Assembly (NCBI GenBank): GCA_028826165.1
Contig: JAPDFW010000088.1
Location: forward strand, 186,001 to 250,000
Reading direction: 5' to 3'
Source of the DNA: Anaeramoeba ignava BMAN
Taxonomy: Eukaryota; Protista; Anaeramoebae
DNA: 64,000 bases
Both the position numbers and the translations under genes were made by a program. The notes under the pieces are model-generated. The model saw only the letters and a list, made by a program, of their open reading frames with translations, ran no database searches and was not told the origin of the DNA. How positions within the stretch are numbered: the first letter of the stretch is position 1; every line of letters starts with the position of its first letter. Positions 3,373-54,260 of the stretch are shown in pieces.

Positions 3373-3599
3373 TGGAAAAAAATTATTGCGATTTTGTTGT
3401 GTTTTTGGCGAATTTAATAAATATGTTGAATTTTGTTGGCTTTGATTTGGTTGTGTTGGTTGGGTTGGTTGTGTATTTTGTGTATTTATTAATGGATTAT
3501 TTGGATCTTTGCATTTTTATTTTTTATGAATGAAAAAATGAAAAAAATGAAAAAAAAATTTTCATCTTTTATACTTTCTTTTTTCACTCTTTTTTTCTT

Positions 3600-4322: not shown

Positions 4323-4397
4323 GGGGGTGTGGCGCAGTCTTGGGAGCGCATTACACTGAAGATGTAAGGGTCGTGTGTTCAATCCACACCACTCCCA
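4323..4397 (+). tRNA. trnF-GAA: tRNA-Phe (GAA), copy 1
   Basis: Cloverleaf: acceptor GGGGGTG/CACTCCC, D stem GCGC/GCGC, anticodon stem TTACA/TGTAA with loop CTGAAGA, T stem GTGTG/CACAC with loop TTCAATC, discriminator A, then a T-run (Pol III terminator). Confidence 0.96.
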
Positions 4398-4749: not shown

Positions 4750-7700
4750 AATTTAAACAAAGTTTTTTTTGAGATAGAATTTTTAGAAAGAAAAAGATTA
4801 AAGATTTTTCTTTCGAATTTTAGTTTTGGATTTTTATTTATTCTGTTAGAAATTGTGATCTTTAATAGAATTTGAATTTGAAATTGAAATTGAATTTGAA
4901 TTTGAAATTGAAATTGAATTTGAATTTGATTTTGAATTTGAATTTGAATTTGATTTTGATTTAGATTTTGATTTTGAATTTGATTTTGATTTTGATTTTG
5001 ATTTTGAAATTGAATTTGAAATTGAATTTGATTTTGAATTTGAATTTGAATTTGATTTTGATTTTGATTTTGATTTTGAATTTGAATTTGATTTTGATTT
5101 TGAATTTGATTTTGAATTTGAATTTGATTTTGATTTTGATTTTGAATTTGAATTTGATTTTGATTTTGAATTTGATTTTGATTTTGAATTTGAATTTGAA
5201 ATTGAATTTGAATTTGAATTTGAATTTGATTTAGATTTTGATTTTGAATTTGATTTTGATTTTGAATTTGAATTTGATTTTGATTTTAATTTTAATTTTG
5301 ATTTTGATTTTGATTTTGAATTTGATTTTGATTTTTAATTTGATTTTGGTTTTTAATTTGATTTATATTTTGATTTTGATTTTGAATTAAATTTATATTT
5401 TGATTTTGATTTAGAATTTGATTTTGATTTTGATTTTGATTTTGATTTTGGTTTTGAATTTGATTTTGATTTTGATTTTGATTTTGATTTTGATTTTGAT
5501 TTTGATTTTGATTTTGATTTTGATTTTGATTTTGATTTTGATTTTGATTTTGATTTTGATTTTGATTTTGATTTTGATTTTGATTTTGATTTTGAATTTG
5601 ATTTTGATTTTGATTTTGATTTTGATTTTGAATTTGAATTTGATTTTGATTTTGATTTTGATTTTGATTTTGAATTTGATTTTGATTTTGATTTTGATTT
5701 TGATTTTGATTTTGATTTTGATTTTGATTTTGATTTTGATTTTGATTTTGATTTTGAATTTGAATTTGATTTTGATTTTGATTTTGATTTTGAATTTGAT
5801 TTTGAATTTGAATTTGAATTTGAATTTGAATTTGAATTTGATTTTGATTTTGATTTTGAATTTGATTTTGATTTTGAATTAAATTTATATTTTGATTTTG
5901 ATTTTGATTTATATTTTGATTTTGATTTTGAATTAAATTTATATTTTGATTTTGATTTAGAATTTGATTTTGAATTTGATTTTGATTTTGAATTTGATTT
6001 TGATTTTGAATTTGATTTTGAATTTGAATTTGATTTTGATTTTGATTTTGATTTTGATTTTGATTTTGATTTTGATTTTGGATTTTGAATTTGATTTTGA
6101 TTTTGAATTTGAATTTGAATTTGAATTTGATTTTGAATTTGATTTTGAATTTGATTTTGAATTTGATTTTGATTTTGATTTTGATTTTGATTTTGATTTT
6201 GATTTTGATTTTGATTTTGATTTTGAATTTGATTTTGATTTTGATTTTGATTTTGATTTTGAATTTGATTTTGATTTTGAATTTGAATTTGATTTTGAAT
6301 TTGAATTTGATTTTGATTTTGATTTTGATTTTGATTTTGATTTTGATTTTGATTTTGGTTTTGATTTTAATTTTAAATTTGATTTTGATTTTGATTTTGA
6401 ATTTGAATTTGAATTTGAATTTGATTTTGAATTTGAATTTGAATTTGATTTTGAATTTGAATTTGATTTTGATTTTGATTTTAATTTTGATTTTGATTTT
6501 TAATTTGATTTTGATTTTTAATTTGAATTTGAATTTGATTTTGAATTTGATTTTGATTTTGATTTTGAATTTGATTTTGATTTTGAATTTGATTTTGAAT
6601 TTGATTTTGATTTTGATTTTGAATTTGATTTTGATTTTGAATTTGATTTTGAATTTGATTTTGAATTTGATTTTGATTTTGATTTTGATTTTGATTTTGA
6701 TTTTGATTTTGATTTTGATTTTGATTTTGAATTTGATTTTGATTTTGAATTTGATTTTGATTTTGAATTTGAATTTGTATCTTCAAAAAGAAAATCATTT
6801 TGAGATTTAAAGCATTCAAAGAAAGTATTTTCAAAATCTCCAAAATATTTCAAAATTTCATTTTTTGGATAAGAAATAAAATAATTTTTGAAATCTTCAA
6901 GTTTCACACCTTCTTCTTGTTCTTTTTTAGTTATTGGTAATTCTTGAAATATTTCATGAACTTTAGATATTATATTTTGTTCATAAATTAATTCTTTGAT
7001 TTGAAATTCAATGCTATTCATTTCATGTTTAGATAAATTGCTTATATCTTTTTCTTGTTTTTTGTAAGAAAGCCAAAATTGTAAAAAAAATGTAACATTT
7101 AAAATTTGTTCGAAAGCTTCATATAATTCATTTCGATCAAGAAATTCATTATCATCTCTTTTAAATTTGTATTTTTAAAATTTTTGGATTTTAAATTAAT
7201 TTTTTTTTAATTTTTTTTTGGATTTTTGAAATAATAATTTACGTATCATAAATCTTAAAAAATTTTACTGCTTTTTCTCTAATTGATGTTTTTTTAAAGT
7301 TATTCAAAGCTTCAATTAAAGTTATTGATTTATTTTCATATTGTTTATCATTTCTAATTTTTAATTTGAAAAATATAAATATAAATATAAATATAAATAT
7401 AATTATAATTATAAATATAAATATAAATATAATTATAATTATAAATATAAATATAAATATAAATATAAATATAAATATAAATATAAATATAAATATAAAT
7501 ATAAATATTTGAAATATAATTATAAATATAAATATAAATATAAATATAAATATAAATATAAATATAAATATAAATATAAATATAAATATAAATATAAATA
7601 TAAATATAAATATAAATATAAATATAAATATAAATATAAATATAAATATAAATATAAATATAAATATAAATATTTGAAATATAAATAACAAACAATCCAA

Positions 7701-8967
7701 ATATATCTGAAACTGTTGTGAGTCTTTTATCATTCAAACAAAACATTTTTTGGATAGTATTAATAATTGATGATTGATATTTTGGTTTCTAATTTAAGAA
7801 ATATTTTCATTTTTTAAAAAATGAAATAAATTTAGATAAATAAATAAATAGATGAATTTTAAATTGATATTTCTAATTTTACTTCATTATCTTTTGAATT
7901 TTTATCTTTTGGAATAATATTTTGTGAAATTGGTTGAATAATTTGATTTGGAGATTGAGTAGAGCTGATTGTTTTTTTGAATTCTTGTAATTCTGCCCTG
8001 TGTTTAATAGTAACTTCTAAATTAAGATCTTGTTCTAATTGATCTAATAAGTTGTTTTGTTCTTCAATATCTTCAAGAAACTCAGAAGAAGATGTTAATC
8101 TTGCAAATACTCCTTTTTTAGCATATTTACTTACAGTTAAAAATAATTCTTTCAATATTTCCAAAAAATTTGTTAAATTTATAAATTTTTTGCTTTGATT
8201 TTGATTTTGATTTTGATTTTGATTTTGATTTTGATTTTGATTTTGAATTTGATTTTGATTTTGATTTTGAATTTGATTTTGATTTTGATTTTGATTTTGA
8301 TTTTGATTTTCATTTTGATTTTGAATTTGATTTTGAATTTGATTTTGATTTTGATCATTTTCAAATTTTGTAATTTGATTTTGAATTTGATCTTCAATTA
8401 AAAATTGATAAAAAACACTTATAATAATTTGATAGTAATTTTTTTGTTTTTCTTTTTGTTTTTCTTGTTTTTTTGATAAGTTTTGATTTAAATTTATTTG
8501 TTGTTCCTGCTTTTGATTTTGAATTAATATATCAAGATAAGCTTTTTTAAAACTTATTTGGAAAAATTTGAATTTTGTTTGAACTAATTCTCTTTTTTTA
8601 TTATTTAAACTGGTTTTATTCATTTCTTCTTTTAACCTATCGCAATTTATTTTAAAACGATCTTTTTGGTTTTCACTTAATTCTGCTTGTGGAATTATTT
8701 GCATTTGAGGAAATACTATTATTTTTTTTTTAATAAACAAAATTAATTAAAATAAAAACAAAAAAAAAATTAAATAAAAAAATTTTTTTTCCTTTTTTTT
8801 CCTTTTTTTTTTTGCTTTTTTTTTTTACAGAATTGTATTGTTTTTGTTAATCTATCTATTCTTCCAAGAAATTGAATAACTATTTTTCCTGCTTTTGTTT
8901 TGTTATCAAATTGTTCTTTAAACCATTTTATTGCATCAATAATAAGTTCAATTAAATCTGTTTCCAT
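4750..8967 (-). CDS. Short paralog A1: MLKL-like four-helix bundle, NCS/calcineurin-B-like EF-hand domain, Ser/Lys/Asn microsatellite tail
   Basis: Predicted exons 8967-8829, 8715-7883, 7788-7694, 7353-7243 and 7157 onward, with consistent phases. [23 protein letters not shown]...LGRIDRL and [50 protein letters not shown]; EF-hand loop [12 protein letters not shown] forms across a splice junction. The 3' end is uncertain because it runs into repeat. Confidence 0.6.
4870..6775. repeat. (GATTTT/GAATTT)n hexamer microsatellite, about 1.9 kb
   Basis: Directly visible; the inverted counterpart (AAAATC/AAATTC)n is at about 31840-32930. Confidence 0.95.
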
Positions 8968-9417: not shown

Positions 9418-9492
9418 GGGGGTGTGGCGCAGTCTTGGGAGCGCATTACACTGAAGATGTAAGGGTCGTGTGTTCAATCCACACCACTCCCA
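9418..9492 (+). tRNA. trnF-GAA: tRNA-Phe (GAA), copy 2
   Basis: Same sequence as 4323-4397, with the same flanks. Confidence 0.96.
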
Positions 9493-9872
9493 TTTATTTT
9501 TTTTTTATTCTTTTTTTCTTTTTTTAATTTATTTTTTTCTTTTTGATTTAAATTGGAATAAAATTAATAAATATAAAATAAATAATAAAAAAGTGGAATA
9601 AAATTAATAAATATTTTTTAAATAAATTAAAAATGAAATTAATAAATAAAATAAATAATAAAAAAGTGGAATGAAATTAATAAATATTTTTTAAATAAAT
9701 TAAAAATAAATTAATAAAAAAATTTGTTTTGTTTTTTTTTTGAATTATTGAAAAGAATTGAAAAAAAAGAATTGAAAAGAATTGAAAAAAAAAGAATTGA
9801 AAAGAATTGAAAAGAAAAGAAAGAAAAGAAAAGAAAAGAATTGAAAAAAAAGAAAGAAAGAATTGAAAAAAA

Positions 9873-12800
9873 TTATCTGATGTTATGTAATCGATATTTA
9901 ATTTCATATTCTGGATAATATGAAAATTGTTCAAAAACGAAATATTGTGTGTATCTTGATTTCATTTCTTTGTTAGAAACTTCAATAATAATTGAATTAT
10001 AGTTTTTCATTTTTTCATAATCAAATTTCTCGTTTTGATTCATTCGATAAAATCTTCCTAAACAAACTCGATAAATATAAATAGTATGAAGTCCACTTTC
10101 AATATCAACTGTTGAATATTCATGAGCAATAGGGAAATTTTCAAAAAAATGTTTAGAATTGGGAATGTTGAAATTTTTAAATTCTGGTAATTGTTCATTT
10201 AAAATTCCTTCAATTACTGAACATGAATCAAATCTTTTTCCTGAAAATAAGTAACATTCATTAATACTGTTTAAATCTAATTTATCTGTTGTTTTTAATT
10301 GAATAATTTCATCTTTTTGTATTATATCTCTTGTTGAAAATACTTGTTTTTTATATCTTGAATAAAGTGAATAAAGTGTAATATCTTTGTTTTGTTTAAC
10401 TTCAATAATATCAATATTTGGTGTAATAAATGTTTCTGTTGAACAATATGATAAATCTATTAATTTGCTGATTTTATCATAAGAATAATCATAATTGTGA
10501 ACATTTTGTCCATAACAAATTCGTTTAAAACGTGGAAGTATGGATTTGATTCTTAATTCGAAACTTTTTGGGATTGGAGAATATTCATGAAAAAATGAAA
10601 ATTCTAATAATCTTAAAGGTGTTAAAGAATATTCTTTTTTTTGTTGTATAAATTTTTTATATTCTTCTTCAGGAAATAATATTTCTCTTAATTCATTTAA
10701 TTTTGTATCTTGGAAAATTTTGAGAAATTTGTTCATATCTTGATTAACTAATCCTTGGGTTTCTTTAATAGCATCACCAATATAAACAAATTTTTCTTCT
10801 TTGAAAAAAAGTTGTGTGAAAATTGCATTATTTCTTTTTGTTGAAATGAGAATTGAAGAAAGTGGTATTGTTTGTAAATTATCTGAGAAAAATAAATTTT
10901 TGGAATGAAGATAATGAATTCCAAGAAGTAATTGTTTAATAAATTCAATAAATTGTAAATATGAAAAATTTGGTGATGAAATGTAATCTTTGAGTGTTCC
11001 TTCATATTTATTTTTGAATTGAATGATATAACTTTTATGTTGTTTATCTTCTTCTACTTCATAATAACATTTCAATTTTCCGATTGAGGATTGATTTAAT
11101 TCAATATAAGGTAACATTTTGTTTTTGTTAATTTTCATATAAAAATATTTTTCAATTTTATTATAATAAGGAATTGGTGAATATGCTTTATCTTCTTTTA
11201 ATATTTTAGTATTAATTATTTCTTTGATTGATTCATTCATTTTAAATTTCTTCATTATATTTTGTATATTCGATTTTTAATTTCTTTTTGATTTGTTTCA
11301 TAAAAAGTTGATAATTCTCATTTCCTAATTCTTTGATTCTGGTTGATAATTTGGTTTCTTGATTTTTTTCATTTTCGGTTAATTCTTTATATTTATAGAA
11401 TAAACTAAATAGAATAAAATCTTCCCAATCTGAATATTTATTGATTTGATTCATTTCAGAAATATGATCTCGAATAATTTTATGAAATTTTTTATTTGAA
11501 AGAAATTTCTTAAGTTGATCTGGATCTTCGGAATTTAATTTTTCGAGTTTTTTAAGTAAATTAATTGAATTGATAAATCTTCGAATTATTTGAATTTGTA
11601 TGAATTGTCTTTTTGAATTTTTTTGTTCGTTATATTCTATTAAATTAGTTGGTTTTGAAATTTGATGAAATTGTTTGAATTTAATTGAAATTTCTCCAAT
11701 TTCTTGATAAATAAAATTAACTAATTCTCTTATTTGTTCTATTTTAAGATTTTTTTTTGGATCTTTTAAATATAAATATAATTTTTCTAATTTATTTAAT
11801 TTTGTGTGAATTTCTTCAAGATTTGTAACATATCTAAGTGTTGTGAAATTTTTATGAAGTTCGTCATATTGAGCTGTATCTTCCATTTTTTTCCAAAATT
11901 TTTGTATTTCTTTTTTGAATATTTTGGTTTCTCTTTCTCTTTTGGATAATAATGATTTTGAAAATGATAATGATAATAATAATGATTTTGATAATGATTT
12001 CGATAATAATGATGATTTTGATAATGATGATTTTGGTTTTTCAAATTGAATAATTTCATCAAAATGAATTTGAGAACTATTATATAAATTTTCAAGATTA
12101 TTTTTGGGTGATAAAATTTGTGGAATTTTATCAAAAAATTCAATAAGTTTTAGTTGAGATGAATTTACTGAGTTTGAATATATTTTGGGTGTAATTTCAA
12201 TTTTTTGAATTTTAGTTTCTAAAAATCTTAAATTTTTGGATATTTTGATTTTTTGTTGTGATGGTTTTGGTTTTGGGTTTAAATCTTGATATTTAGCTGG
12301 ATAATTAATACGACACCATTCATTAAGTTTGATAAATGATTCTTTTGAAGTTTTTTCATCTTCATAACTTTTATTATAATTACGTAATAAAATAAGATAT
12401 TGATATCTTAAATCTTTTTTAATATTTTCATCTTCTTCAAATTTAGGATTGTTTTCATCTCCTTTAAATATTGGATGTTGTAATGATTCTTTGGATTTTT
12501 GAGGTTGAGTATCAAAATAAAGATGAATTAATGATAAAAGATATGTGGCTTTTTGTTCTTTATCATTGGTTATTTCAATCATATTTTCCAATGCTTCAAT
12601 TTTTTCATTTAAAGATTCAACATTTTCAAAAGCATATTTGAATAAATTAAATACTTTAAAAGATTTTTTTTCATCTTTATCAATTTTTTTTTCATCTTTA
12701 TCAGTTTTTTTTTCATCTTTATCAGTTTTTTTTTCATCTTTATATAATTTTGCAAGTAATAATTTATGTCTAGATTCTTCGATTTTATCATTTTGTGATT

Positions 12801-15800
12801 TGAAATTTTCACAAAGTTGTTTTAAAATTTGTTTACGTTTTAAAATAAGTTGAGAATCATTAGATTTGTCTTCTGGTTTTGGATCATAAAGATCAGTAGT
12901 TAATCCAAGTGCAAATTTGAGAATTTCAATTTTTTTTAATGAAGGAATCTTTTCTTCTTTTTCTTTTAAAAAGTCAAAACATTCTTTAATTCGTTTTAAT
13001 GCCCATTTTAATGTTTTATTATAGAAATCTGTATCTATTTTAGTATCTGAAGTGTTTTCTATTTCAGATTTTTCATAGAATTGACCATCAATTTTTATAG
13101 GTTGTTTAATTAAATGAGTTATATTTTTAGTATTTTGGTATTCGCGCTTTATAAAAGTGAGTTTTTGAGCCACTTCTTCAGTTTCATCTTTCTTTGTGAG
13201 ATCCATACTAATTGATAAAAGGTTTAAATTTTTACGTTGATGAGATTTTCTCGGTTCTTTTTTTACATCCAAAAATCTTCGAATATTTGTATTGTGTCGT
13301 TTTAGTTTTGAGGGTTTTGGTAATTTTGTGAGATCCATACTAATTGAAAAATGGTTTAAATTTTTACGTTTGTGATATTTTGTCGGTTCTTTTTTTACAT
13401 CAAAAAACCTTGGAATAGTTGGATTGTTTGATTTTATTTCTGATTCTTTTTTTTTTGATTTTGGTTTTATTTCTGGTTCTTTTGATCCTAATATTTTTTG
13501 ATTTGTTGTTTTTGGTTGTGCTGATTTTGGTTCTTTTGATATTTTTGATTCTATATCCGAGTCTGATTCTGTTGTTATTGTTAATTCTTCTTTTGATTCT
13601 TCTTTTGATTCTTCTTGTGTATCTTCAAAAAGAAAACTATATTGAAATTTAAAGCATCCAAAGAAAGTATTTTCAAAATCTCCAAAGCATTTCAAAATTT
13701 CATTTTTGGATAAAAGACAAAATGATTTTGAAATCTTCAAGTTTCACACCTTCTTCTTGTTCTTTTTAGTTATTGGTAATTCTTGAAATATTTCATGAAC
13801 TTTAGATATTATATTTTTCATTAATTAATTCTTTGATTTGAAATTCAATTTTATTTATTTCATTTGAAGATAAATTGCTTATATCTTTTCTTGTTTTTGT
13901 AAGAAAGCCAAAATTGTAAAAATGTAACATTTAAAATTTGTTCGAAAGCTTCATATAATTCATTTTCTTCAAGAAGTTCATTATGATTACTTTTTTTTAT
14001 TTTAAATTTTTAATTATTAATTAATTTTATTTTAATTTTTTTTGGATTTTTGAAATAATAATTTACGTATCATAAATCTCAAAAAATTTTACTGCTTTTT
14101 CTCTAATTGATGTTTTTTTAAAGTTATTCAAAGCTTCAATTAAAGTTATTGATTTATTTTCATATTGTTTATCATTTCTAATTTTTAATTTGAAAAATAT
14201 AAAAATAAATATAAATATAAATATAAATATAAATATAAATATAAATATAAATATAAATATAAATATAAATATAAATATAAATATAATTATAAATATAATT
14301 ATAAACATAAATATAAATATAAAAATAAAAATAAAAATAAAAATATAAATATAAATATAAATATAAATATAAATATAAATATAAATATAAATATAAATAT
14401 AAAAATAAAAATAAAAATAAAAATATAAATATAAATATAAATATAAATATAAATATAAATATAAATATAATTATAAATATAAATATAAAATATAAATATA
14501 AATATAAATATAAATATAAATATAAATATATAAATATAAATATAAATATAAATATAAATATAAATATAAATATAAATATAAATATAAATATAAATATAAT
14601 TATAAACATTTTTGAAATATAAATATAAATATAAATATAAATATAAATATAAATATAAATATAAATATAATTATAAATATAAATATAAATATAAATATAA
14701 ATATAATTATAATTATTTGAAATATAAATATAAATATAATTATAATTATAATTATTTGAAATATAAATATAAATATAAATATAATTATTTGAAATATAAA
14801 TAACAAACAATCCAAATATATCTGAAACTGTTGTGAGTCTTTTATCATTCAAACAAAACATTTTTTGGATATTATTAATAATTGATGATTGATATTTTGG
14901 TTTCTAATTTAAGAAATATTTTCATTTTTTAAAAAATATAAAAAATAAAATAAAAGAAATAAATTTAGATAAATAAATGAATGAATGAATTTTAAATTGA
15001 TAATTCTAATTTTACTGAATATATTATATTTTTGGAATCTAGGATATTAGGTTGATTATTCTTTTGATCTTCATTTTCATTTTGATTCTCATTTTGATTC
15101 TCATTTTGATTCTCATTTTCATTTTCATTTTTATTTTCATTTTTATTTTCATTTTGATTTTGATTTTCATTTTCATTTTCATTTTCATTTTTATTTTCAT
15201 TTTTAATTTGATTTTTAATTTGATTTTCATTTTCATTTTCATTTTCATTTTCATTTTTATTTTCATTTTGATTTTCATTTTCATTTTCATTTTCATTTTC
15301 ATTTTCATTTTGATTTTCATTTTCATTTTTATTTTGATTTTCATTTTCATTTTTATTTTCATTTTTATTTTTATTTTTATTTTCATTTTCATTTTCATTT
15401 TCATTTTCATTTTCATTTTCATTTTCATTTTCATTTTCATTTTCATTTTCATTTTGATTTTCATTTTTATTTTCATTTTCATTTTCATTTTCATTTTCAT
15501 TTTCATTTTCATTTTCATTTTCATTTTCATTTTCATTTTCATTTTCATTTTCATTTTGATTTTGCATTAAATTTTGAATTTGATTTTGAATTTGATTTTC
15601 ATTTTGATTTTGAGTTTGTATTAAATTTTGATTTTGCATTAAATTTTGAATTTGATTTTGATTTTGAGTTTGAGTTTGTATATTTATTATAATATTTTGT
15701 GAAATTGGTTGAATAATTTGATTTGGAGATTGAGTAGAGCTGATTGTTTTTTTGAATTCTTGAAATTCTACCCTGTGTTTAATAGTAAATTCTAAATTAA

Positions 15801-16709
15801 GATCTTGTTCTGATTGATCTAATAAGTTGTTTTGTTCTTCAATATCATCAAGAAACCCAGAAGAGTATGTTAATCTTGCAAATACTCCTTTTTTAGCATA
15901 TTTACTTACAGTTAAAAATAATCCTTTCAATATTTCCAAAAAATTTTTTAAATTAATAAATTTTTGATTTTGATTTTGAATTTGATTTTGATTTTGATTT
16001 TGATTTTGATTTTGGTTTTGATTTTGAATTTGATTTTGATTTTGAATTTGATTTTGATTATTTTCAAGTTTTTCATTTTCATTTTCAAGTTTTGTAATTT
16101 GATCTCCAATTAAAAATTCATAAAAAACACTTATAATAATTTGATAGTAATTTTTTTGTTTTTCTTTTTGTTTTTCTTGTTCTTTTTCTTGTTTTTTTTT
16201 TTGTTTTTTTGTTAAGTTTTGATTTAAATTCATTTCTTTTTCTTCTTCTTTTTTTTGATTTTGAATTAATATATCAAGATAAGCTTTTTTAAAACTTATT
16301 TGGAAAAATTTGAATTTTGTTTGAACTAATTCTCTTTTTTTATTATTTGAACTGGTTTTATTCATTTCTTCTTGTAAGTTATTGCAATTTATTTTAAAAC
16401 GATATTTTTGGAGTTCACTTAATTCTGCTTGTGGAATTATTTGCATTTGAGGAAATACTATTATTTTTTTTTTAATAAACAAAATTAATTAAAATAAAAA
16501 CAAAAAAAAAATTAAATAAAAAAATTTTTTTTCCTTTTTTTTCCTTTTTTTTTTTGCTTTTTTTTTTTACAGAATTGTATTGTTTTTGTTAATCTATCTA
16601 TTCTTCCAAGAACTTGAATAACTATTTTTCCTGCTTTTGCTTTGTTATCAAATTGTTCTTTAAACCATTTTATTCCATCGATAACAAATCCAATTAAATC
16701 TGTTGCCAT
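9873..16709 (-). CDS. Long paralog B1: MLKL-like four-helix bundle, Q/N/E linker, EF-hand domain, U-box-like motif, helical region, pseudokinase, PARP-like domain
   Basis: Predicted exons 16709-16571, 16457-15016, 14903-14809, 14177-14067 and 13989-9873; the last has homopolymer frameshifts near 13750-13920 and 11260-11290. Motifs: EF-hand [21 protein letters not shown]; [22 protein letters not shown]...NKTLK; GTLKDYI...[14 protein letters not shown] without HRD or DFG; NECYLFSG...AHEYS...IYRVCLG...QYFVF...YPEYEIKY. Confidence 0.7.
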
Positions 16710-17926
16710 TTTTATTCAACTTTTTTATTTTTATTTTGTTTTTTTTTTGTGTGTTTGTGTTTTTCTTCAAATTAACCAATAAAAAAAAAATAAAATAAAC
16801 AACAAAAAAAAAATAAAAATAAAAAGAAAAAAATGAAAAAGAAAAGTGGATCTTTAAAATAAATTTTATTTTATTTTTCCTCTTTTTTTCCTTTTTTTCC
16901 TCTTTCAATAAAAGGGATAAAACCTCAATTCCAATTTTAATTTCACTTAAAAATAAAAAATTAAAATAAATATTAAAATAAATAATAAAATAAATATTAA
17001 AATAAATATTAAAATAAATATTAAAACAAATAATAAATTAAATATTAAAATAAATATTAAAATAAATATTAAAATAAATATTAAAAATAAAATAAATATT
17101 ATATATTAAATATTAAAATAAATATTAAAATAAATATTCAATTTAATATTAAAAATAAATATTAAAATAAATATTCAATTTAATATTAAAATAAATATTA
17201 AAATAAATATTAAAATAAATATTAAAATAAATATTGAATCAAAATATTTAAAATAAATATTAAAATAAATATTAAATTAAATATTAAATTAAATATTAAA
17301 ATAAATATTAAAATAAATATTGAAATAAATATTAAAATAAATATTATAATAAAAATATTAAAATAAATAAATTTAAATATTAAATTAAATATTAAAATAA
17401 ATATTAATTTAAATATTAAAATAAATATTAAAATAAATATTAAAATAAATATTAAATTAAATATTAAAAATAAATATTAAATTAAATATTAAAATAAATA
17501 TTAATTTAAATATTAAAAATAAATATTAAAATAAATATTAAAATAAAAATTAAATTAAATATTAAAATAAATATTAAAATAAATATCAAAAATAAATATT
17601 AAAATTAAATATTAAATTAAATATTAAAATAAATATTAAAATAAAATATTAAAATAAATATTAAAATAAATATTAAAATAAATATTATAATAAATATTAA
17701 AATAAATATTAAAATAAATATTAAATTAAATAATAAAATAAATATTAAGTTGTTTTTCCAATTTGGTATGTAAAAGGATTGTTTAAAGGAAATAAAAGAA
17801 ATAATAGGTTGTTTCTGTATTTGTTTTTAATGAAATAAAACTTAAATTTTCATAAAACAATCAATTAAAAAAAAAGAAAGAAAATAAGAAAAGGGTTTTG
17901 TTTGTTTGTTTGTTTGTTTGTTTTTC

Positions 17927-20346
17927 TTAAACATTTCTTCTTGATTGAAAACAAGACTATTGATTAAAAATTAAAAATAAAATCAAAATAACAAAATTAA
18001 ATTAATAAAATATTAAAGAATTTGTTTTTTTGAAATGAAAAAAAAATATTGAAACTTACTTTATCAGAATTAAATATAAATTCGAAAAAATCTTCAATTT
18101 CTTTCATACACATTTCAGGTTTTTCTTTTTGAATAAAACAATCAAACATATTTTGTTGCAGTTCAGAATATTTTTGAGGAAATTTTTCTCTTTAAATTAA
18201 ATAATTTTAAATTAAATAATGTTAAATTAAATAATTTTAAATTAAATAATTTTGAAATTAAATAATTTTGAATAAATTTTAAATTAAATAAATTTTAAAT
18301 TAAATAAATTTTAAATTAAATAATTTTGAAATTAAATAATTTTGAATTAAATAATTGTGAATTAAATAATTTTAAATTAAATAATGTTAAATTAAATAAT
18401 TTTAAATTAAATAATGTTAAATTAAATAATTTTAAATTAAATAATTTTAAATTAAATAAATTTTAAATTAAATAAATTTTAAATTAAATAAATTTTAAAT
18501 TAAATAAATTTTAAATTAAATAATTTTAAATTAAATAAATTTTAAATTAAATAATTTTAAATTAAATAATTTTAAATTAAATAATTGTAAAATTAAATAA
18601 TTTTTAAATTAAATAATTTTTAAATTAAATAATTTTTAAATTAAATAAATTTGAATTAAATAATTTTTAAATTAAATAATTTTAAAATTAAATAATTTTG
18701 AATTAAATAATTGTGAATTAAATTAATTTTAAATTAAATAAATTTGAATTAAATAATTTTTAAATTAAATAATTTTGAATTAAATAATTGTAAATTAAAT
18801 AATTTTAAATTAAATAATTTTTGAATTAAATAATTTTTGAATTAAATAATTGTAAATTAAATAATTGTGAATTAAATAATTGTAAATTAAATAATTGTGA
18901 ATTAATGTTAAATTAAATAATTGTGAATTAATTTTAAATTAAATAATTTTGAATTAATTTTAAATTAAATAATTTTGAATTAAATAATTGTGAATTAATT
19001 TTAAATTAAATAATTTTTAAATTAAATAAATTTAAATTAAATAATTTTAAATTAAATAATTTTGAAATTAAATAATTTTGAATTAAATAATTTTTGAATT
19101 AAATAATTGTGAATAAATTTGAATTAAATAATTTTGAAATTAAATAATTTTTAAATTAAATAGTTTTGAATTAAATAATTTTAAATTAAATAATTTGAAA
19201 TTAAATAATTTTTGAAATTAAATAATTGTGAATTAAATAAATTTGAATTAAATAATTTTTAAATTAAATAATTTTAAATTAAATAATTTTGAATTAATTT
19301 TAAATTAAATAATTGTGAATTAAATTAATTTTTAAATTAAATAATTTTGAATAAATTTTTAAATTAAATAATTTTAAATTAAATAATTTTTAAATTAAAT
19401 AAATTTGAATTAAAATAATTTTGAATTAATTTTTAAATTAAATAATTTTAAATTAAATAATTTTGAAATTAAATAATTGTGAATTAAATTAATTTTTAAA
19501 TTAAATAATTTTGAATTAAATAGTTTTGATTTAAATAATTTTAAATTAAATAAATTTAAAATTAAATAAATTTAAATTAAATAATTTTAAAATTAAATAA
19601 TTTTAAATTAAATAATTTTGAATAAATTTTAAAATTAAATAATTTTAAATTAAATAATTTTAAATTAAATAATTTTAAATTAAATAATTTTGAATTAAAT
19701 TAATTGTAAATTAAATAAATTTAAATTAAATTAATTTTAAATTAAATAATTTTAAATTAAATAATTTTGAATTAAATAGTTTTTGAATTAAATAATTTTT
19801 AAATTAAATAATTTTTGAATTAAATAGTTTTGATTTAAATAATTTTGAATTAATTTTAAATTAAATAATTTTGAATTAAATAATTGTAAATTAAATAATT
19901 TTAAATTAAATAGTTTTGATTTAAATAATTTTAAATTAAATAGTTTTAAATTAAATAATTTTAAATTAAATAATTTTAAATTAAATAAATTTAAATTAAA
20001 TAATTTTAAATTAAATAAATTTAAATTAAATAATTTTAAATTAAATAATTTTAAATTAAATAATTTTGAATTAATTTTAAATTAAATAATTGTTTTTTAC
20101 CGAAAAATTTTTTCAATGGATATTTTTGGAATTTTGTTATAATCAACTTCTTGTATGTTATTAAAATTATTTGTAATCATTTCAACAAATTCTTTTGTCA
20201 TCTTAAATTTAAAAATAAATGGTAAATAAACGAATAATTAGATAAAAATTAGATAGATTTAAAATAGAAAATTAAAATACAGAAATTTGAAAAGGGTTTT
20301 CTTGAATATTTTCATAAGAAAATAATGATGATTGATTTGCTCCCAT
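17927..20346 (-). CDS. Small protein with an N-myristoylation motif and Cx9C; Mic19/CHCHD3-like (~108 aa)
   Basis: Exons 20346-20281, 20201-20101, 18189-18060 and probably 17956-17927 splice in frame to MGANQSSLFSYENIQENPFQISMTKEFVEMI...KYSELQQNMFDCFIQKEKPEMCMKEIEDFFEFIFNSDK. Absent from the ORF track because the exons are short. Confidence 0.6.
18191..20095. repeat. Intronic ~17-nt tandem repeat (AAATTAAATAATTTT), about 1.9 kb
   Basis: Visible degenerate tandem array inside intron 2 of the Mic19-like gene. Confidence 0.9.
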
Positions 20347-20553
20347 TCAAATTAAAAAAAAAAAATGAAAAAAAAAAAAATGAAAAAAAAAAATGAAAAA
20401 TAAAATTTAAATAAAAAAGAGGAAAAATAAAAATAAAAATTTAAATAAAAAAGAGGAAAAATAAATTTATTTAAAAATCCACTTTTCTTTTTTAATTCTT
20501 TTTTTTAATTCTTTTTAATTTTTTTTTTCATTTTTCTTTTTTTAAAATTAAAA

Positions 20554-23500
20554 ATGGCAACAGATTTAATTGGATTTGTTGTCGATGGAATAAAATGGTT
20601 TAAAGAACAATTTGATAATAAAGCAAAAGCAGGAAAAATAGTTATTCAAGTTCTTGGAAGAATAGATAGATTAACAAAAACAATACAATTCTGTAAAAAA
20701 AAAAGCAAAAAAAAAAAGGAAAAAAAAGGAAAAAAAATTTTTTTATTTAATTTTTTTTTTTGTTTTTATTTTAATTAATTTTGTTTATTAAAAAAAAATA
20801 ATAGTATTTCCTCAAATGAAAATAATTCCACAAGCGAAATCAATCGATAAAGATGATTTTAAAACAAATTGCGATAACTTACAAAAAGAAATGAATAAAA
20901 CCAGTTTAAATAATAAAAAAAGAGAATTAGTTCAAGAAAAATTCAAAGATATCGAAATAAGTTCGAAAAAAGCTTATCTTGATATATTAATTCAAAATCA
21001 AAAGCAAGAACAACAAATAAATTTAAATCAAAACTTATCAAAAAAACAAGAAAAAGAACAAGAAAAACAAAAAAATTACTATCAAATTATTATAAGTGTT
21101 TTTTATGAATTTTTAATTGAAGATCAAATTAAAAAACTTGAAAATGAAAATGAAAAACTTGAAAATAATGAAAATCAAAACAAAAAATTTATTAATTTAA
21201 CAACTTTCTTGGAAATATTGAAAGGATTATTTTTAACTGTAAGTAAATATGCTAAAAAAGGTGTATTTGCAAGATTAACATCCTCTTCTGGGTTTCTTGA
21301 AGATATTGAAGAACAAAACAACTTATTAGATCAATCAGAACATGATCTTAATTTAGAAGTTACTATTAAACAGAGGGTAGAATTACAAGAATTCAAAAAA
21401 ATACTCGAATCTACTCAATATTCAAACCAAAACATTCAACCAATTTCACAAAATATTATAATAAATATACAAAATCAAAATCAAAATCAAAATCAAAATC
21501 AAAATCAAAATCAAAATCAAAATCAAAATCAAAATCAAAATCAAAATCAAAATCAAAATCAAAATCAAAATCAAAATCAAAATCAAAATCAAAATCAAAA
21601 TCAAAATCAAATTAAAAATCAAAATCAAATTAAAAATCAAATTAAAAATCAAAATCAAATTAAAAATAAAAATAAAAATAAAAATAAAATTAAAAATGAA
21701 AATCAAAATAAAAATCAAAATAAAAATGAAAATGAAAATAAAATTAAAAATGAAAATGAAAATCAAAATGAAAATGAAAATGAAAATAAAAATGAAAATC
21801 AAAATGAAAATAAAAATGAAAATAAAATTAAAAACGAGAATCAAAATGAAAATGAAAATCAAAAGAATAATCAACCTAATATCCTAGATTCCGAAAAAAC
21901 ATATTCAGTAAAATTAGAATTATCAATTTAAAATTCATTCATTCATTTATTTATCTAAATTTATTTCTTTTATTTTATTTTATTTTATTTTTTAAAAAAT
22001 GAAAATATTTCTTAAATTAGAAACCAAAATATCAATCATCAATTATTAATACTATCCAAAAAATGTTTTGTTTGAATGATAAAAGACTCACAACAGTTTC
22101 AGATATATTTGGATTGTTTGTTATTTATATTTCAAATAATTATATTTATATTTATATTTATATTTATATTTATATTTATATTTATATTTATATTTATATT
22201 TATATTTTTATTTAAATATTGATATTTATATTTATATTTATAATTATATTTATATTTATATTTATATTTATATTAATATTTATATTTATATTTTTATATT
22301 TATATTTATATTTATATTTATATTTATATTTATATTTATATTTATATTTTATATTTATATTTATATTTATATTTATATTTATATTTATATTTATTTATAT
22401 TTATATTTATATTTATATTTATATTTATATTTATATTTATATTTATATTTATGTTATATTTATATTTTTATATTTATATTTATATTTATATTTATATTTA
22501 TATTTATATATTTATATTTATATTTATATTTATATTTATATTTATTTATATTTATATTTATATTTATATTTATATTTATATTTATATTTATATTTTATAT
22601 TTATATTTATATTTATATTTTATATTTTTGATTTATATTTATATTTATATTTATATTTTATTTTTCAAATTAAAAATTAGAAATGATAAACAATATGAAA
22701 ATAAATCAATAACTTTAATTGAAGCTTTGAATAACTTTAAAAAAACATCAATTAGAGAAAAAGCAGTAAAATTTTTAAGATTTTTTTGATACGTAAATTA
22801 TTATTTCAGAAATCCAAAAATTAAAATAAAATTAATTAATAATTAAAAATTTAAAATAAAAAGTAATGATAATGAACTTCTTGAAGAAAATGAATTATAT
22901 GAAGCTTTCGAACAAATTTTAAATGTTGCATTTTTTTACAATTTTGGCTTTCTTACAAAAACAAGAAAAAGATATAAGCAATTTATCTTCAAATGAAATA
23001 AATAACATTGAATTTCAAATCAAAGAATTAATTAATGAACAAAATATAATATCTAAAGTTCATGAAATATTTCAAGGATTACCAATAACTAAAAAAGAAC
23101 AAGAAGGTGTGAAACTTGAAGATTTCAAAATCATTTTATCTTTTATCCAAAAATGAAATTTTGAAATATTTTGAGAATTTTGAAAAGTTTTTTTTTGAAC
23201 ACTTTAATCAAAAGAAGAATCAAGAATCAAAAGAAGTTTCTTTTGAAGAATCAAAATCAAAAAAAAAGAATCAAATAAAATCAAACAATCATTCAAATCT
23301 AAATTAACAACACAAAATATTCAACTTTCAACTTTTCAATTAGAATCAAAATCCTCAAAATTACCAAAACGAAACCAAAACAACAAAATTCAAATATTCC
23401 AAGGTTTTCTGACGGAAAAAAGAACCAAGAAAACCTTATCAACGTAAAAATTTAAACCTTTTATCAATTAGTATGGATCTCACAAAGAAAGATGAAACTG

Positions 23501-26500
23501 AAGAAGTGGTTCAAAAACTCACTTTTATAAAGCGCAAATACCAAAATACTACAAATATAACTCATTTAATTAAACAACCTATAAAAATTGATGGTCAATT
23601 CTATGAAAAATCTGAAATAGAAAACACTTCAGATACTAAAATAGATACTAAAATAGATACAGATTTCTATAATAAAACATTAAAATGGGCATTAAAACGA
23701 ATTGAAAAATGTTTTGAATTTTTAAAAGAAAAAGAAGAAAAGATTCCTTCATTAAAAAAAATTGAAATTCTCAAATTTGCACTTGGATTAACTACTGATC
23801 TTTATGATCCAAAACCAGAAGACAAATCTAATGATTCTCAACTTATTTTTAAAACGTAAACAAATTTTAAAACAACTTTGTGAAAATTTCAAATCAAAAT
23901 GATAAAATCGAAGAATCTAGACATAAATTATTACTTGCAAAATTATATAAAGATGAAAAAAAAATTGATAAAGATGAAAAAAATCTTTTAAAGTATTTAA
24001 TTTATTCAAATATGCTTTTGAAAATGTTGAATCTTTAAATGAAAAATTGAAGCATTGGAAAATATGATTGAAATAACCAATGATAAAGAACAAAAAGCCA
24101 CATATCTTTTATCATTAATTCATCTTTATTTTGATACTCAACCTCAAAAATCCAAAGAATTATTACAACATCCAATATTTAAAGGAGATGAAAACAATCC
24201 TAAATTTGGAAGAAGATGAAAATATTAAAAAGATTTAAGATATCAATATCTTATTTTATTACGTAATTATAATAAAAGTTATGAAGATGAAAAAACTTCA
24301 AAAGAATCATTTATCAAACTTAATGAATGGTGTCGTATTAATTATCCAGCTAAATATCAAGATTTAAACCCAAAACCAAAACCATCACAACAAAAATCAA
24401 AATATCCAAAAATTTAAGATTTTTAGAAACTAAAATTCAAAAATTGAAATTACACCCAAAAATATATTCAAACTCAGTAAATTCATCTCAACTAAAACTT
24501 ATTGAATTTTTTGATAAAATTCCACAAATTTTATCACCCAAAAATAATCTTGAAAATTTATATAATAGTTCTCAAATTCATTTTGATGAAATTATTCAAT
24601 TTGAAAAACCAAAATCATCATTATCAAAATCATCATTACCAAAATCATTATTATCCAAAAGAGAAAAGAAACCAAAATATTCAAAAAAGAAATACAAAAA
24701 TTTTGGAAAAAAATGGAAGATACAGCTCAATATGACGAACTTCATAAAAATTTCACAACACTTAGATATGCTACAAATCTTGAAGAAATTCACACAAAAT
24801 TAAATAAATTAGAAAAATTATATTTATATTTAAAAGATCCAAAAAAAAATCTTAAAATAGAACAAATAAGAGAATTAGTTAATTTTATTTATCAAGAAAT
24901 TGGAGAAATTTCAATTAAATTCAAACAATTTCATCAAATTTCAAAACCAACTAATTTAATAGAATATAACGAACAAACAAATCCAAAAAGACAATTCATA
25001 CAAATTCAAATAATTCGAAGATTTATCAATTCAATTAATTTACTTAAAAAACTCGAAATATTAAATTCCGAAGATCCAGATCAACTTAAGAAATTTCTTT
25101 CAAATAAAAAATTTCATAAAATTATTCGAGATCATATTTCTGAAATGAATCAAATCAATAAATATTCAGATTGGGAAGATTTTATTCTATTTAGTTTATT
25201 CTATAAATATAAAGAATTAACCGAAAATGAAAAAAATCAAGAAACGAAATTATCAACCAGAATCAAAGAATTAGGAAATGAAATTATCAACTTTTTTTAT
25301 GAAACAAATCAAAAAAAAGAAATTAAAAAATCAAATATACAAAATATAATGAAGAAATTTAAAATGAATGAATCAATCAAAGAAATAATTAATACTAAAA
25401 TATTAAAAGAAGATAAAGCATATTCACCAATTCCTTATTATAATAAAATTGAAAAATATTTTTATATGAAAATTAACAAAAACAAAATGTTACCTTATAT
25501 TGAATTAAATCAATCCTCAATCGGAAAATTGAAATGTTATTATGAAGTAGAAGAAGATAAACAACATAAAAGTTATATCATTCGATTCAAAAATAAATAT
25601 GAAGGAACACTCAAAGATTACATTTCATCACCAAATTTTTCATATTTACAATTTATTGAATTTATTAAACAATTACTTCTTGGAATTCATTATCTTCATT
25701 CCAAAAATTTATTTTTCTCAGATAATTTACAAACAATACCACTTTCTTCAATTCTCATTTCAACAAAAAGAAATAATGCAATTTTCACACAACTTTTTTT
25801 CAAAGAAGAAAAATTTGTTTATATTGGTGATGCTATTAAAGAAACCCAAGGATTAGTTAATCAAGATATGAACAAATTTCTCAAAATTTTCCAAGATACA
25901 AAATTAAATGAATTGAGAGAAATATTATTTCCTGAAGAAGAATATAACAAACTTAAAAAACAAAAAAAAGAATATTCTTTAACACCTTTAAGATTATTAG
26001 AATTTTCATTTTTTCATGAATATTCTCCAATCCCAAAAAGTTTCGAATTAAGAATCGAATCCATACTTCCACGTTTTAAACGAATTTGTTATGGACAAAA
26101 TGTTTACATTTATGATGATACTTATGATAAAATCAGGAAATTAATAGATTTATCATATTGTTCAACAGAAACATTTATTACACCAAATATTGATATTATT
26201 GAAGTTAAACAAAACAAAGATATTACACTTTATTCACTTTATTCAAGATATAAAAAACAAGTATTTTCAACAAGAGATATAATACAAAAAGATGAAATTA
26301 TTCAATTAAAAACAACAGATAAATTAGATTTAAACAGTATTAATGAATGTTACTTATTTTCAGGAAAAAGATTTGATTCATGTTCAGTAATTGAAGGAAT
26401 TTTAAATGAACAATTACCAGAATTTAAAAATTTCAATATTCCCAATTCTAAACATTTTTTTGAAAATTTCCCTATTGCTCATGAATATTCAACAGTTGAT

Positions 26501-26731
26501 ATTGAAAGTGGACTTCATACTATTTATATTTATCGAGTTTGTTTAGGAAGATTTTATCGAATGAATCAAAACGAAAAATTTGATTATGAAAAAATGAAAA
26601 ACTATAATTCAATTATTATTGAAGTTTCTAACAAAGAAATGAAATCAAGATACACACAATATTTCGTTTTTGAACAATTTTCATATTATCCAGAATATGA
26701 AATTAAATATCGATTACATAACATCAGATAA
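20554..26731 (+). CDS. Long paralog B2, same architecture as B1; several homopolymer frameshifts
   Basis: Predicted exons 20554-20692, 20805-21907, 22021-22115, 22681-22792 and 22864-26731. ORF 24713-26731 joins the helical region to the pseudokinase and PARP-like domains in one frame. Confidence 0.68.
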
Positions 26732-28169: not shown

Positions 28170-28244
28170 TGGGAGTGGTGTGGATTGAACACACGACCCT
28201 TACATCTTCAGTGTAATGCGCTCCCAAGACTGCGCCACACCCCC
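28170..28244 (-). tRNA. trnF-GAA: tRNA-Phe (GAA), copy 3
   Basis: Reverse complement of 4323-4397. Confidence 0.96.
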
Positions 28245-29450
28245 TTATATATTTAATTATTTTTTTTTTTCTCTTCTTATTTTTTTTTTTTTAAAATTTA
28301 TATCTTTTATATTTATTATTTAAAATAAATTTTTTTTTTCTTTTTTTTTTAATTAAAATTTTAACTTAATAATTAATTTATATTTATTTTAATTTAATAT
28401 TTATTTTAATTTATATTTATTATTTTATAAATATTCTATTTAATTATCTTATTTGTTTTAATTTAATTTTTTGATTAAATTTTATATTAATTTATATTTT
28501 ATTCCACTTTTTTTAATTAAAATTTTAACTTAAAAATTAATTTATATTTATTTTAATTTAATATTTATTTTAATTTATATTGATTATTTTATAAATATTC
28601 TATTTAATTATCTTATTTGTTTTAATTTAATTTTTGATTAAATTTTATATTAATTTATATTTTATTCCACTTTTTTTTAATTAAAATTTTAACTTAATAA
28701 TTAATTTATATTTATTTTAATTTAATATTTATTTTTAATTTATATTTATTATTCTATAAATATTCTATTTAATTATCTTATTTGTTTTAATTTAATTTTT
28801 GATTAAATTTTATATTAATTTATATTTTATTCCACTTTTTAATTAAAATTTTAACTTAATAATTAATTTATATTTATTTTAATTTATATTTATTTTTAAT
28901 TTATATTTATTATTTTATAAATATTCTATTTAATTATCTTATTTGTTTTAATTTAATTTTTGATTAAATTTTATATTAATTTATATTTTTATTCCACTTT
29001 TTAATTAAAATTTTTTAACTTAATAATTAATTTATATTTATTTTAATTTATATTTATTTTAATTTATATTTATTTTTAATTTATATTTATTTTAATTTAT
29101 ATTTATTTTAATTTATATTTATTATTTTATAAATATTCTATTTAATTATTTTATTTGTTTTAATTTAATTTTTGATTAAATTTTATATTAATTTATATTT
29201 TATTCCACTTTTTTTAATTAAAATTTTAACTTAATAATTAATTTATATTTATTTTAATTTATATTTATTTTAATTTATATTTATTTTAATTTATATTTAT
29301 TTTAATTTATATTTATTTTAATTTATATTTATTATTTTATAAATATTCTATTTAATTATCTTATTTGTTTTAATTTAATTTTTCCTAAATAGAAAAAAAG
29401 CAAAACAAATCCACATTTTTTTTTTCATTTTTTTATTTACAAAAATAAAA

Positions 29451-32040
29451 ATGGCAACAGATTTAATTGAACTTATTATTGATGCAATAAAATGGTTTAA
29501 AGAACAATTTGATAACAAAGCAAAAGCAGGAAAAATAGTTATTCAAGTTCTTGGAAGAATAGATAGATTAACAAAAAACAATACAATTCTGTAAAAAGCA
29601 AAAAGGAAAAAAGAAAAAAAATTTTTTTATTTAATTTTTTTTTTGTTGTTATTTTAATTAATTTTGTTTATTAAAAAAAAAATAATAGCATTTCCTCAAA
29701 TGCAAATAATTCCACAAACAGAATTAAGTGAAAACCAAAAATATCGTTTTAAAATAAGTTGCGATAACTTACAAAAAGAAATGAATAAAACCAGTTTAAA
29801 TAATAAAAAAAGAGAATTAGTTCAAACAAAATTCAAATTTTTCCAAATAAGTTTTAAAAAAGCTTATCTTGATATATTAATTCAAAATCAAAAAAAAGAA
29901 GAAGAAAAAGAAATGAATTTAAATCAAAACTTAACAAAAAATCAAAAAAAAAAAAGAACAAGAAAAACAAAAAGAAAAACAAAAAAATTACTATCAAATT
30001 ATTATAAGTGTTTTTTATCAATTTTTAATTGAAGATCAAATTCAAAATCAAATTCAAAATCAAAATCAAAATCAAAATGAAAATCAAAATCAAATTGAAA
30101 ATCAAAGCAAAATCAGATTCAAAATCAAAATCAAAATCAAAATCAAAGCAAAAAATTTATTAATTTAACAAATTTGTTGGAAATATTGAAAGGATTATTT
30201 TTAACTGTAAGTAAATATGCTAAAAAAGGAGTATTTGCAAGATTAACATCTTCTTCTGGGTTTCTTGAAGATATTGAAGAACAAAACAACTTATTAGATC
30301 AATTAGAACATGATCTTAATTTAGAAGTTACTATTAAACAGAGGGTAGAATTACAAGAATTCAAAAAAACAATCAGCTCTACTCAATCTCCAAATCAAAT
30401 TATTCAACCAATTTCACAAAATATTATTCCAAAAGATAAAAATTCAAAAGATAATGAAGTAAAATTAGAAATATCAATTTAAAATTCATCTATTTATTTA
30501 TCTAAATTTATTTCATTTTTTAAAAAATGAAAATATTTCTTAAATTAGAAACCAAAATATCAATCATCAATTATTAATACTATCCAAAAAATGTTTTGTT
30601 TGAATGATAAAAGATTCACAACAGTTTCAGATATATTTGGGTTGTTTTTTATTTATATTTCAAATATTTATATTTATATTTATATTTATATTTATATTTA
30701 TATTTATATTTATATTTATATTTCAAATATTGATATTTATATTTATATTTATATTTATATTTATATTTATATTTATATTTATATTTATATTTATATTTAT
30801 ATTTCAAATATTTATATTTATATTTATATTTATATTTATATTTAGATTGATATTTATATTTATATTTTTATATTTTATATTTATATTTATATTTATATTT
30901 ATATTTATATTTATATTTTATATTTATATTTATAATTATATTTCAAATATTTATATTTATATTTATATTTCAAATATTTATATTTATATTTATATTTATA
31001 TTTTATATTTTATATTTATATTTATAATTATATTTATATTTATATTTATATTTATATTTATATTTATATTTTTGATTTATATTTATATTTATATTTATAT
31101 TTATATTTTTGATTTATATTTATATTGATATTTTTATATTTATATTTTATATTTTATATTTATAATTATATTTATATTTATATTTATATTTATATTTATA
31201 TTTATATTTATATTTATATTTCAAATATTTATATTTATATTTTTATTTTTCAAATTAAAAATTAGAAATGATAAACAATATGAAAATAAATCAATAACTT
31301 TAATTGAAGCTTTTGAATAACTTTAAAAACATCAATTAGAGAAAAAGCAGTAAAATTTTTTGAGATTTATGATACGTAATTTATTATTTCAAAAATCCAA
31401 AAATTAAAAATAAAATTAAATTAAAATCCAAAAATTTTAAAAATACAAATTTAAAAGAGATGATAATGAATTTCTTGATCGAAATGAATTATATGAAGCT
31501 TTCAAACAAATTTTAAATGTTACATTTTTTTTACAATTTTGGCTTTCTTACAAAAAACAAGAAAAAGATATAAGCAATTTATCTAAACATGAAATGAATA
31601 ACATTGAATTTCAAATCAAAGAATTAATTAATGAACAAAATATAATATCTAAAGTTCATGAAATATTTCAAGAATTACCAATAACTAAAAAAGAACAAGA
31701 AGGTGTGAAACTTGAAGATTTCAAAAATTATTTTATTTCTTATCCAAAAAATGAAATTTTGAAATATTTTGGAGATTTTGAAAATACTTTCTTTGAATGC
31801 TTTAAATCTCAATATGATTTTCTTTTTGAAGATACAAATTCAAATTCAAAATCAAAATCAAAATCAAAATCAAAATCAAAATCAAAATCAAAATCAAAAT
31901 CAAAATCAAAATCAAAATCAAATTCAAAATCAAAATCAAAATCAAAATCAAAATCAAAATCAAAATCAAAATCAAAATCAAAATCAAATTCAAAATCAAA
32001 ATCAAAATCAAAATCAAAATCAAAACCAAATTCAAATTAA
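29451..32040 (+). CDS. Short paralog A2: MLKL-like four-helix bundle, EF-hand domain, SK-repeat tail (frameshifts; 3' end uncertain)
   Basis: ATG at 29451 gives [28 protein letters not shown]; same exon series as A1; ends in (TCAAAA)n. Confidence 0.55.
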
Positions 32041-54154: not shown

Positions 54155-54260
54155 TTCTTTTTATATTATTAAAAAAAAAATAAAAAAATGATAAAAAATG
54201 ATTAAAAATTTTTTTCATTTTTTTTTTTCATTTTTTTTTAAAAAACAAAAATTTATAATA

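Follow-up and report, generated by a model that had tools for sequence, protein, structure and literature searches.

Does a metamonad carry a cell-death protein of the MLKL type? The question is raised by a locus of Anaeramoeba ignava BMAN that lies in a 64,000-nucleotide stretch of contig JAPDFW010000088.1 (assembly GCA_028826165.1, positions 186,001 to 250,000 of the forward strand), called the window here. An earlier note, written from the letters alone, had read in it a recently amplified, MLKL-like candidate gene for cell death or immunity with a four-helix bundle, EF-hands, a U-box-like motif, a pseudokinase and a pseudo-PARP; MLKL was thus named before any family search was made. We found that the copy B1 (9873..16709, minus strand) is a single long gene with a degenerate kinase-like and PARP-like end and an N-terminal candidate for an MLKL/HeLo-type bundle.

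B1 has five exons on the minus strand (16709-16571, 16457-15016, 14903-14809, 14177-14067 and 13989-9873), intron 1 being 16570-16458. All four introns were seen spliced in sequencing contigs of runs X2 and X4, which were taken as complementary DNA (cDNA) because the spliced joints are present. The joint between exons 1 and 2 occurred in X2 and X4 contigs, from two studies, that align with the short copy A2 (29400-30655), and these contigs also show a 5' leader of the B1 type and the exon 3-4 joint. Both runs contain an exon 2-3 joint of the B2 type, and X4 record 16 reads from exon 1 through the insert described below into helices 3 and 4 in one cDNA contig. Intron 4 was skipped with CT..AC ends in X2 contigs on B1 9800-14205, of which record 15 extends across the junction into exon 3; it was retained in X3 record 23. 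No A-type spliced joint was found among the X2 and X4 alignments listed, which says nothing on the silence of the short copies.

As assembled, B1 meets its first stop at amino acid (aa) 639, and B2, when aligned with corrected B1, has 19 gaps outside the repeat linkers that change the frame, some of them belonging to in-frame repeat changes. At least 12 indels were seen for B1; 11 at two broken zones were applied, and the one at 13446, carried by a minority of X2 contigs only, was omitted. These 11 read-seen indels leave the spliced B1 frame with 1 stop, at codon 1973, instead of 59. For the breaks between 13702 and 13917, contigs otherwise letter-identical to B1 supply the absent bases (X1 record 6, X3 records 21 and 23). 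The contigs that correct the second zone (11273-11317) carry B2-like letters, and this correction is therefore not B1-specific; the cDNA contig X2 record 10 spans this last break with frame-restoring gaps. Furthermore, none of the 118 distinct substitutions among the copies makes a stop, compared to 8.6-13.7 expected, a contrast somewhat inflated by the use of B1 as reference. Nanopore assemblies polished with Pilon keep homopolymer errors in near-identical repeats. The present assembly is Nanopore-based with Pilon polishing, according to the accessible part of the genome paper (PMC11550330). The B1 frameshifts are assembly errors, and B1 is one spliced, transcribed gene with a single frame of 1,972 aa. 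The one reservation is that no single contig covers the transcript from end to end: none bridges 11932-12007 or the N/Q repeat, both of which lie inside open frames of the assembly. The earlier note had seen a need to polish the indels and had named separate genes as what would undo its reading; the spliced joints, the transcribed contigs and the one open frame obtained with read-supported indels bear out a single gene.

The databases hold this gene in pieces. The NCBI annotation splits it: M0811_10298 (822 aa) corresponds to the middle part of B1. A search with the C-terminal frame returned two A. ignava proteins, 99% and 94% identical, and the matching protein cluster comprises window fragments of 414 and 672 aa, the 455-aa KAJ5071485.1 and a transcript-derived EukProt entry, P0005. 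KAJ5071485.1 differs from B1 as well as from B2 and probably reflects a third long copy outside the window. P0005 is marked complete and starts inside the kinase part; we rejected it as a separate short gene because it is labelled with 431 residues but has 414, and because X2 record 10 continues upstream of its start. Such an excess of the labelled over the actual length is to be expected if a frame lacking its 5' end was cut back to a start codon. The sequence of P0005 alternates between patches of the B2 and B1 types, which may reflect gene conversion, another copy or a chimeric assembly. The N-terminal half was absent from all protein collections searched, where only fragments are held. Word-based searches returned only A. 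ignava's own fragments at near length, no homologue of exon 2 and no long forms of the C-terminal part, the last being weak evidence. Genes of this kind are thus invisible to surveys of annotated proteomes, and the gene model given here corrects the annotation even if a death role is false.

The C-terminal part of the product comprises two enzyme-like domains. The first (aa 1518-1735; 10590..11240, minus strand) matched Pfam Pkinase at E 0.00096 (19 bits, under the cut-off). All 59 of its Protein Data Bank (PDB) matches at E up to 10 were kinases, with CDPK and DAPK leading (best E 0.027); MLKL was absent among the 59, and the scores are too weak for family placement. Its Atlas features were closest to kinase and pseudokinase clusters (0.82-0.84, lead level). 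In the alignment the HRD motif reads FSD, and KxxN and DFG are lost. With these two motifs lost and the kinase fold matched, the label pseudokinase is fair, and the domain looks CAMK-like from its matches. The earlier note had seen neither HRD nor DFG here; DFG is indeed gone, and KxxN with it, but the Asp of HRD is kept. The second domain (aa 1736-1972; 9873..10589, minus strand) has a PARP12-like ADP-ribosyltransferase fold: 3 of 3 PDB matches were PARP12 (E 0.0021-0.0048), and 9 of 10 Atlas structure matches were clusters with Pfam PARP, the tenth being named a PARP fragment, all under the naming bar. Pfam PARP itself did not match the C-terminal part. The PDB alignment puts His at the conserved Tyr of the catalytic triad and Gln at its third position, and Ser stands at what we take to be the catalytic His. 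Neither an H-Y-E nor an H-Y-hydrophobic NAD-binding triad is apparent at these changed positions, and the domain is therefore likely inactive. Taken together, three tools support kinase-like and PARP-like folds with lost motifs, and the predicted pseudokinase and pseudo-PARP stand.

We next considered the N-terminus. The two N-terminal peptides quoted in the earlier note are exact in B1 once intron 1 is removed, but B2 differs at a few residues. Exon 1 (aa 1-47; 16571..16709, minus strand), the first half of the putative bundle, encodes two predicted amphipathic helices, and helix 3, a short helix and helix 4 follow at aa 212-280 (15757..15963, minus strand). For this second half, MLKL_N came top among 24,736 Pfam families in three of the four copies (E 0.004 for A1, 0.059 for A2 and 0.28 for B1; no match for B2), at profile positions 52-130 of 142; over aa 212-280 of B1 the weak match covers positions 52-122. 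Exon 1 of B2 alone had no Pfam match. None of 30 control tiles of the same length, taken from this and neighbouring genes, matched MLKL_N. AlphaFold2 predicted, with low confidence, two long helices and then a long, a short and a long one, which is the expected order. When exon 1 and helices 3-4 were given to ESMFold2 as two chains, they scored 0.40 compared to 0.03 for the best control, a weak pass, with at least 72% of contacts common to the runs and a partner predicted local distance difference test score (pLDDT) of at least 68. Of 78 solved complexes 51 reached the mark for a pass, as did 2 of 108 mismatched pairs; passes at 0.60 or less came from only 5 of the 78 solved complexes but include every one of the 4 mismatches that passed among 180, and two halves of a single domain may pass through likeness to solved bundles. 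The hydrophobic moment of helix 1 (0.44) lies at the 91st percentile of the protein's 18-mers. These results collectively suggest that the N-terminus probably adopts an MLKL/HeLo-type bundle fold.

Between the two halves of the bundle lies a helical and low-complexity insert of about 165 aa (aa 48-211; 15964..16457, minus strand). It is present in cDNA and is longer than the roughly 150 aa given in the earlier note. An in-frame N/Q/E-rich repeat linker follows (aa 309-508; 15075..15672, minus strand), and then an EF-hand-like region recognised by motif only, which spans exons 3-5 (aa 528-700; 13690..14903, minus strand). This region contains one near-canonical loop (aa 595-606), which intron 4 interrupts in B1 and A1 and which fits 12 of 13 pattern positions, a fit also reached by 44 of 300 shuffles; an extended pattern, written after the sequence was seen, was reached by 5 of 5000. 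That this one EF-hand binds calcium is an evenly balanced proposition. A U-box-like half motif stands at aa 886-912 (13053..13131, minus strand); its pattern, also post hoc, was reached by 0 of 5000 shuffles. Thus one loop remains of the plural EF-hands of the earlier note, and of its U-box-like motif the first half, the second loop being unrecognisable. Downstream are a helical solenoid (aa 921-1160; 12309..13026, minus strand), TPR-like as a lead with all matches under the tool's bar, and an all-helical region of no known family (aa 1301-1517; 11241..11886, minus strand).

Self-BLAST of the window revealed an inverted duplication, with A1 and B1 on the minus and B2 and A2 on the plus strand, in blocks 85-99% identical. 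B2 (20554..26731, plus strand) has the five-exon layout of B1, many homopolymer frameshifts in the assembly and an open frame over its last 708 codons. A1 (6518..8967, minus strand) is open over 605 aa without correction and comprises the bundle, the EF-hand-like region and an S/K tail; A2 (29451..32040, plus strand) is frameshifted in the assembly. All four copies have the start and splice sites in common, but A1 and A2 are short copies that retain the 5' part and, past the EF-hand-like region, finish with a tail of S/K repeats, and no B-type 3' part was found downstream of either. The count of four copies in the earlier note is therefore right, although just two of them, B1 and B2, have the full length. 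The duplicated unit and its flanks carry three tRNA-Phe(GAA) genes (9418-9492 and 4323-4397, plus strand; 28170-28244, minus strand), which may, with simple repeats, have seeded the rearrangements. B1 and B2 point away from each other, and between them, in the middle of the duplication, lies a small intron-rich gene (20346 to about 17900, minus strand) that starts with a myristoylation-like MGANQS and has a stretch resembling, by eye, an EF-hand protein of the NCS type.

The copies differ from one another in patchwork fashion. Between B1 and B2 the differences are concentrated in two short patches round the kinase-PARP junction (10060-10660), and the insert is the fastest-changing part (22 non-synonymous and 1 synonymous in 103 codons). 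By simple counts, the ratio of non-synonymous to synonymous differences per site (pN/pS) was 1.5 for B1-B2 and 3.4-3.8 for B1 against the A copies. GC content at third codon positions is 9%, and the synonymous counts are accounted for (P 0.09-0.86) by a composition-aware neutral simulation that uses the observed spectrum. Hence the copies give no sign of purifying selection on amino acids and no proof of positive selection; their frames are nonetheless kept open.

How far does this evidence carry a membrane-acting defence protein? Besides the unbridged transcript, several results weigh against it. The best MLKL_N score was 17.1 bits compared to a cut-off of 27, below every curated threshold; the match spans the second half of the profile only, B2 gave none, and the three matching copies are near-identical and thus not independent. 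Unrelated families reached E 0.004 or less in 2 of the 30 control tiles, besides true Hyccin matches. An HMMER profile of the N-terminus found 0 homologues at E 0.001 among 1.84 billion representatives, and its PDB matches include no MLKL sequence. The AlphaFold2 N-terminus had a pLDDT of 40 and a predicted template modelling score of 0.19, and a fold search with it returned only coiled coils of the insert, without MLKL. Both AlphaFold2 models, made without deep alignments, were poor (pLDDT 37 and 40) and the fold searches on them uninformative, so the absence of MLKL there is no evidence. The bundle named in the earlier note thus draws weak support from MLKL_N and ESMFold2 but was not reproduced by AlphaFold2 and fold search. 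No precedent was found for a 165-aa insert inside such a bundle; the EF-hand-like region had no family match in Pfam or PDB, and the U-box-like motif none in Pfam, PDB or Atlas. Positive selection on the copies was rejected as unproven, the neutral simulation giving P 0.09-0.86; of the recent amplification offered earlier as the sign of a defence locus, the multiple copies do exist in the assembly, but the analysis gave no proof of diversifying selection.

We tentatively propose, as a possibility held at less than even strength, that the protein is an all-in-one sensor and effector in cell-intrinsic defence. The bundle, once released, would act on membranes, its likeliest restraints being the EF-hand region and the insert that parts helix 2 from helix 3; the kinase and PARP domains, probably dead, would bind signals or act as decoys for them instead of catalysing, and the short A copies would be a bundle plus calcium sensor without the downstream modules. 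Viral pressure on Anaeramoeba has been inferred from inteins (PMC10710043, available text). Several features suit such a role (copy-number growth, patchwork differences between copies and a PARP12/ZAP-type domain fit immune genes), but none is diagnostic, and the same bundle evidence (MLKL_N, control tiles, ESMFold2) would serve a membrane anchor, ion channel or docking module that takes part in calcium-linked signalling or in membrane traffic (at the symbiosome, for instance), rather than a killer. Plant MCA channels and the N-terminal domains of plant U-box proteins use related bundles and are not executioners. Both long copies occur in cDNA contigs of ordinary runs, the function of several fungal MLKL-like classes is described as open in the accessible part of 10.1101/2022.03.16.484565, and trafficking regulators are expanded in Anaeramoeba according to the text available of PMC11550330. 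We regard this non-lethal alternative as somewhat unlikely, yet almost as probable as the defence proposal. Unlikely, too, is an N-terminus of generic amphipathic helices unrelated to MLKL, on a lineage-specific scaffold of decayed kinase, PARP and EF-hand domains. The sub-threshold Pfam score, the chance matches of like strength in 2 of 30 tiles and the lack of a PDB, representative or fold match speak for it; against it, MLKL was named in advance and came top, 0 of 30 controls matched, the match on the second half of the profile leaves exactly the part that exon 1 would supply, and the halves pack in ESMFold2.

Decay of the locus was weighed as well. That the copies are pseudogenes, or haplotypes stacked by the assembler, with no full-length protein, would agree with frameshifts in three of the four assembled copies, three single-base losses common to B1 and B2 (aa 628, 686 and 693), synonymous counts that fit neutral drift, the B2-like letters of the contigs that correct 11273-11317, and a copy arrangement taken from the assembly. 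However, B1-identical contigs carry the bases missing at 13702-13917, frame-restoring gaps take X2 record 10 across the last break, no stop arises from any of the 118 substitutions, and homopolymer errors are expected of a Nanopore and Pilon assembly, which makes this explanation very improbable. The boldest form of the defence proposal, a calcium-gated MLKL-type executioner that ruptures membranes and arose in a metamonad independently of animal MLKL, is as a whole decidedly unlikely. In it, the 165-aa insert would keep the four-helix bundle split, with an EF-hand sensor wired in the same chain; the dead kinase and PARP12-like decoys would trip when host kinases or ADP-ribosylation come under attack from a virus or an intracellular bacterium, and the short bundle-plus-EF-hand copies would act as partners. 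If true, it would mean necroptosis-like altruistic death in an anaerobic protist that houses symbionts.

The window is very AT-rich eukaryotic DNA, and no other immune-type gene was recognised among the neighbours scanned. The housekeeping neighbours encode MutS domain I (1-3516, minus strand), Hyccin (43842-44808, plus strand), a CwfJ/metallophosphoesterase protein (52457-54160, minus strand) and a ubiquitin hydrolase (59909-61531, minus strand). A gene for the second-largest RNA polymerase subunit (33000-41100, plus strand) carries one intein recognised by Pfam (E 3e-15) as well as a second long insert, within domain 6; inteins, one in RPC2 included, have been described for Anaeramoeba (PMC10710043, same text). 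A 3-kb array at 55966-59122 consists of internally repeated AT-rich units that are 80-88% alike.

We then compared the gene with what has been described. Neither the gene nor its architecture was found in the papers searched, most subscription papers lying outside that search, and the combination that the earlier note had not recognised from any described protein thus found no counterpart. The words MLKL, U-box and PARP do not occur in 11 of the 15 supplement files of PMC11550330, nor PARP in its main text as far as available. Anaeramoeba and MLKL stood together in one paper only, in a figure legend on effector candidates of the symbiont (10.64898/2026.04.11.717937, text seen in part). In the accessible parts, PMC10583209 treats viral MLKL copies only, and a survey of 67 protists with human queries reports no homologues of mammalian necroptosis regulators (PMC7539657). 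If the likely domains hold, the gene would offer a candidate for defence or cell death in an amoeba lineage for which no such protein was found described. If it is a true MLKL/HeLo-type effector in a metamonad, the family extends beyond animals, plants and fungi, and a testable candidate is at hand for the self-defence of an amoeba that houses bacterial symbionts.

Among known systems, PARP12, PARP11 and ZAP-type proteins share the PARP likeness (the PARP12 matches and the Atlas PARP clusters), but WWE, zinc finger and macro domains were not found here and the triad is changed. We take plant MCA1/2 (an MCAfunc bundle with an EF-hand-like part) and U-box proteins with an N-terminal bundle to be alike in having a bundle followed by an EF-hand-like or U-box part; unlike them, the present protein has no Pfam match to MCAfunc, PLAC8, U-box or ARM, and no published link to these plant bundles was found. 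Across animals, plants and fungi, four-helix bundle (4HB) and HeLo domains serve as death effectors that target membranes; in some fungal proteins the domain is joined to a kinase or pseudokinase or forms part of an all-in-one receptor (PMC12881547, in the part available; for the HELL-kinase and all-in-one context of fungal MLKL-like proteins also 10.1101/2022.03.16.484565, PMC10951266 and 10.64898/2026.08.07.743466, likewise in part). The protein resembles fungal HeLo, HeLo-like and BaMLKL proteins, plant RPW8 and plant MLKLs in that its putative bundle stands at the very start of a long chain of many domains, but Pfam scans found no NACHT or NB-ARC domain in it; no described HeLo-type member with a PARP-like C-terminus was found in the papers searched. 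In animal MLKL a short brace joins the pseudokinase to the bundle. The present protein is like it in starting with a likely four-helix bundle and in having, towards its C-terminus, a kinase fold that has lost catalytic motifs, the two parts of the 4HB-pseudokinase architecture given for MLKL in PMC12881547 (same part). The earlier note had likened the two architectures, but their identity is not supported: about 1,240 residues separate the bundle (end about aa 280) from the pseudokinase (start about aa 1518), the bundle is interrupted, EF-hand-like, U-box-like, solenoid and PARP-like parts are added, and the kinase matches are led by CDPK and DAPK, none of the 59 being MLKL. Because of the gap and a pseudokinase that looks CAMK-like, the gene, judged by its sequence, is not an MLKL orthologue or family member; its architecture, new as far as the papers searched show, is probably a variant of the MLKL/HeLo-bundle proteins, and by analogy the protein may work like them.

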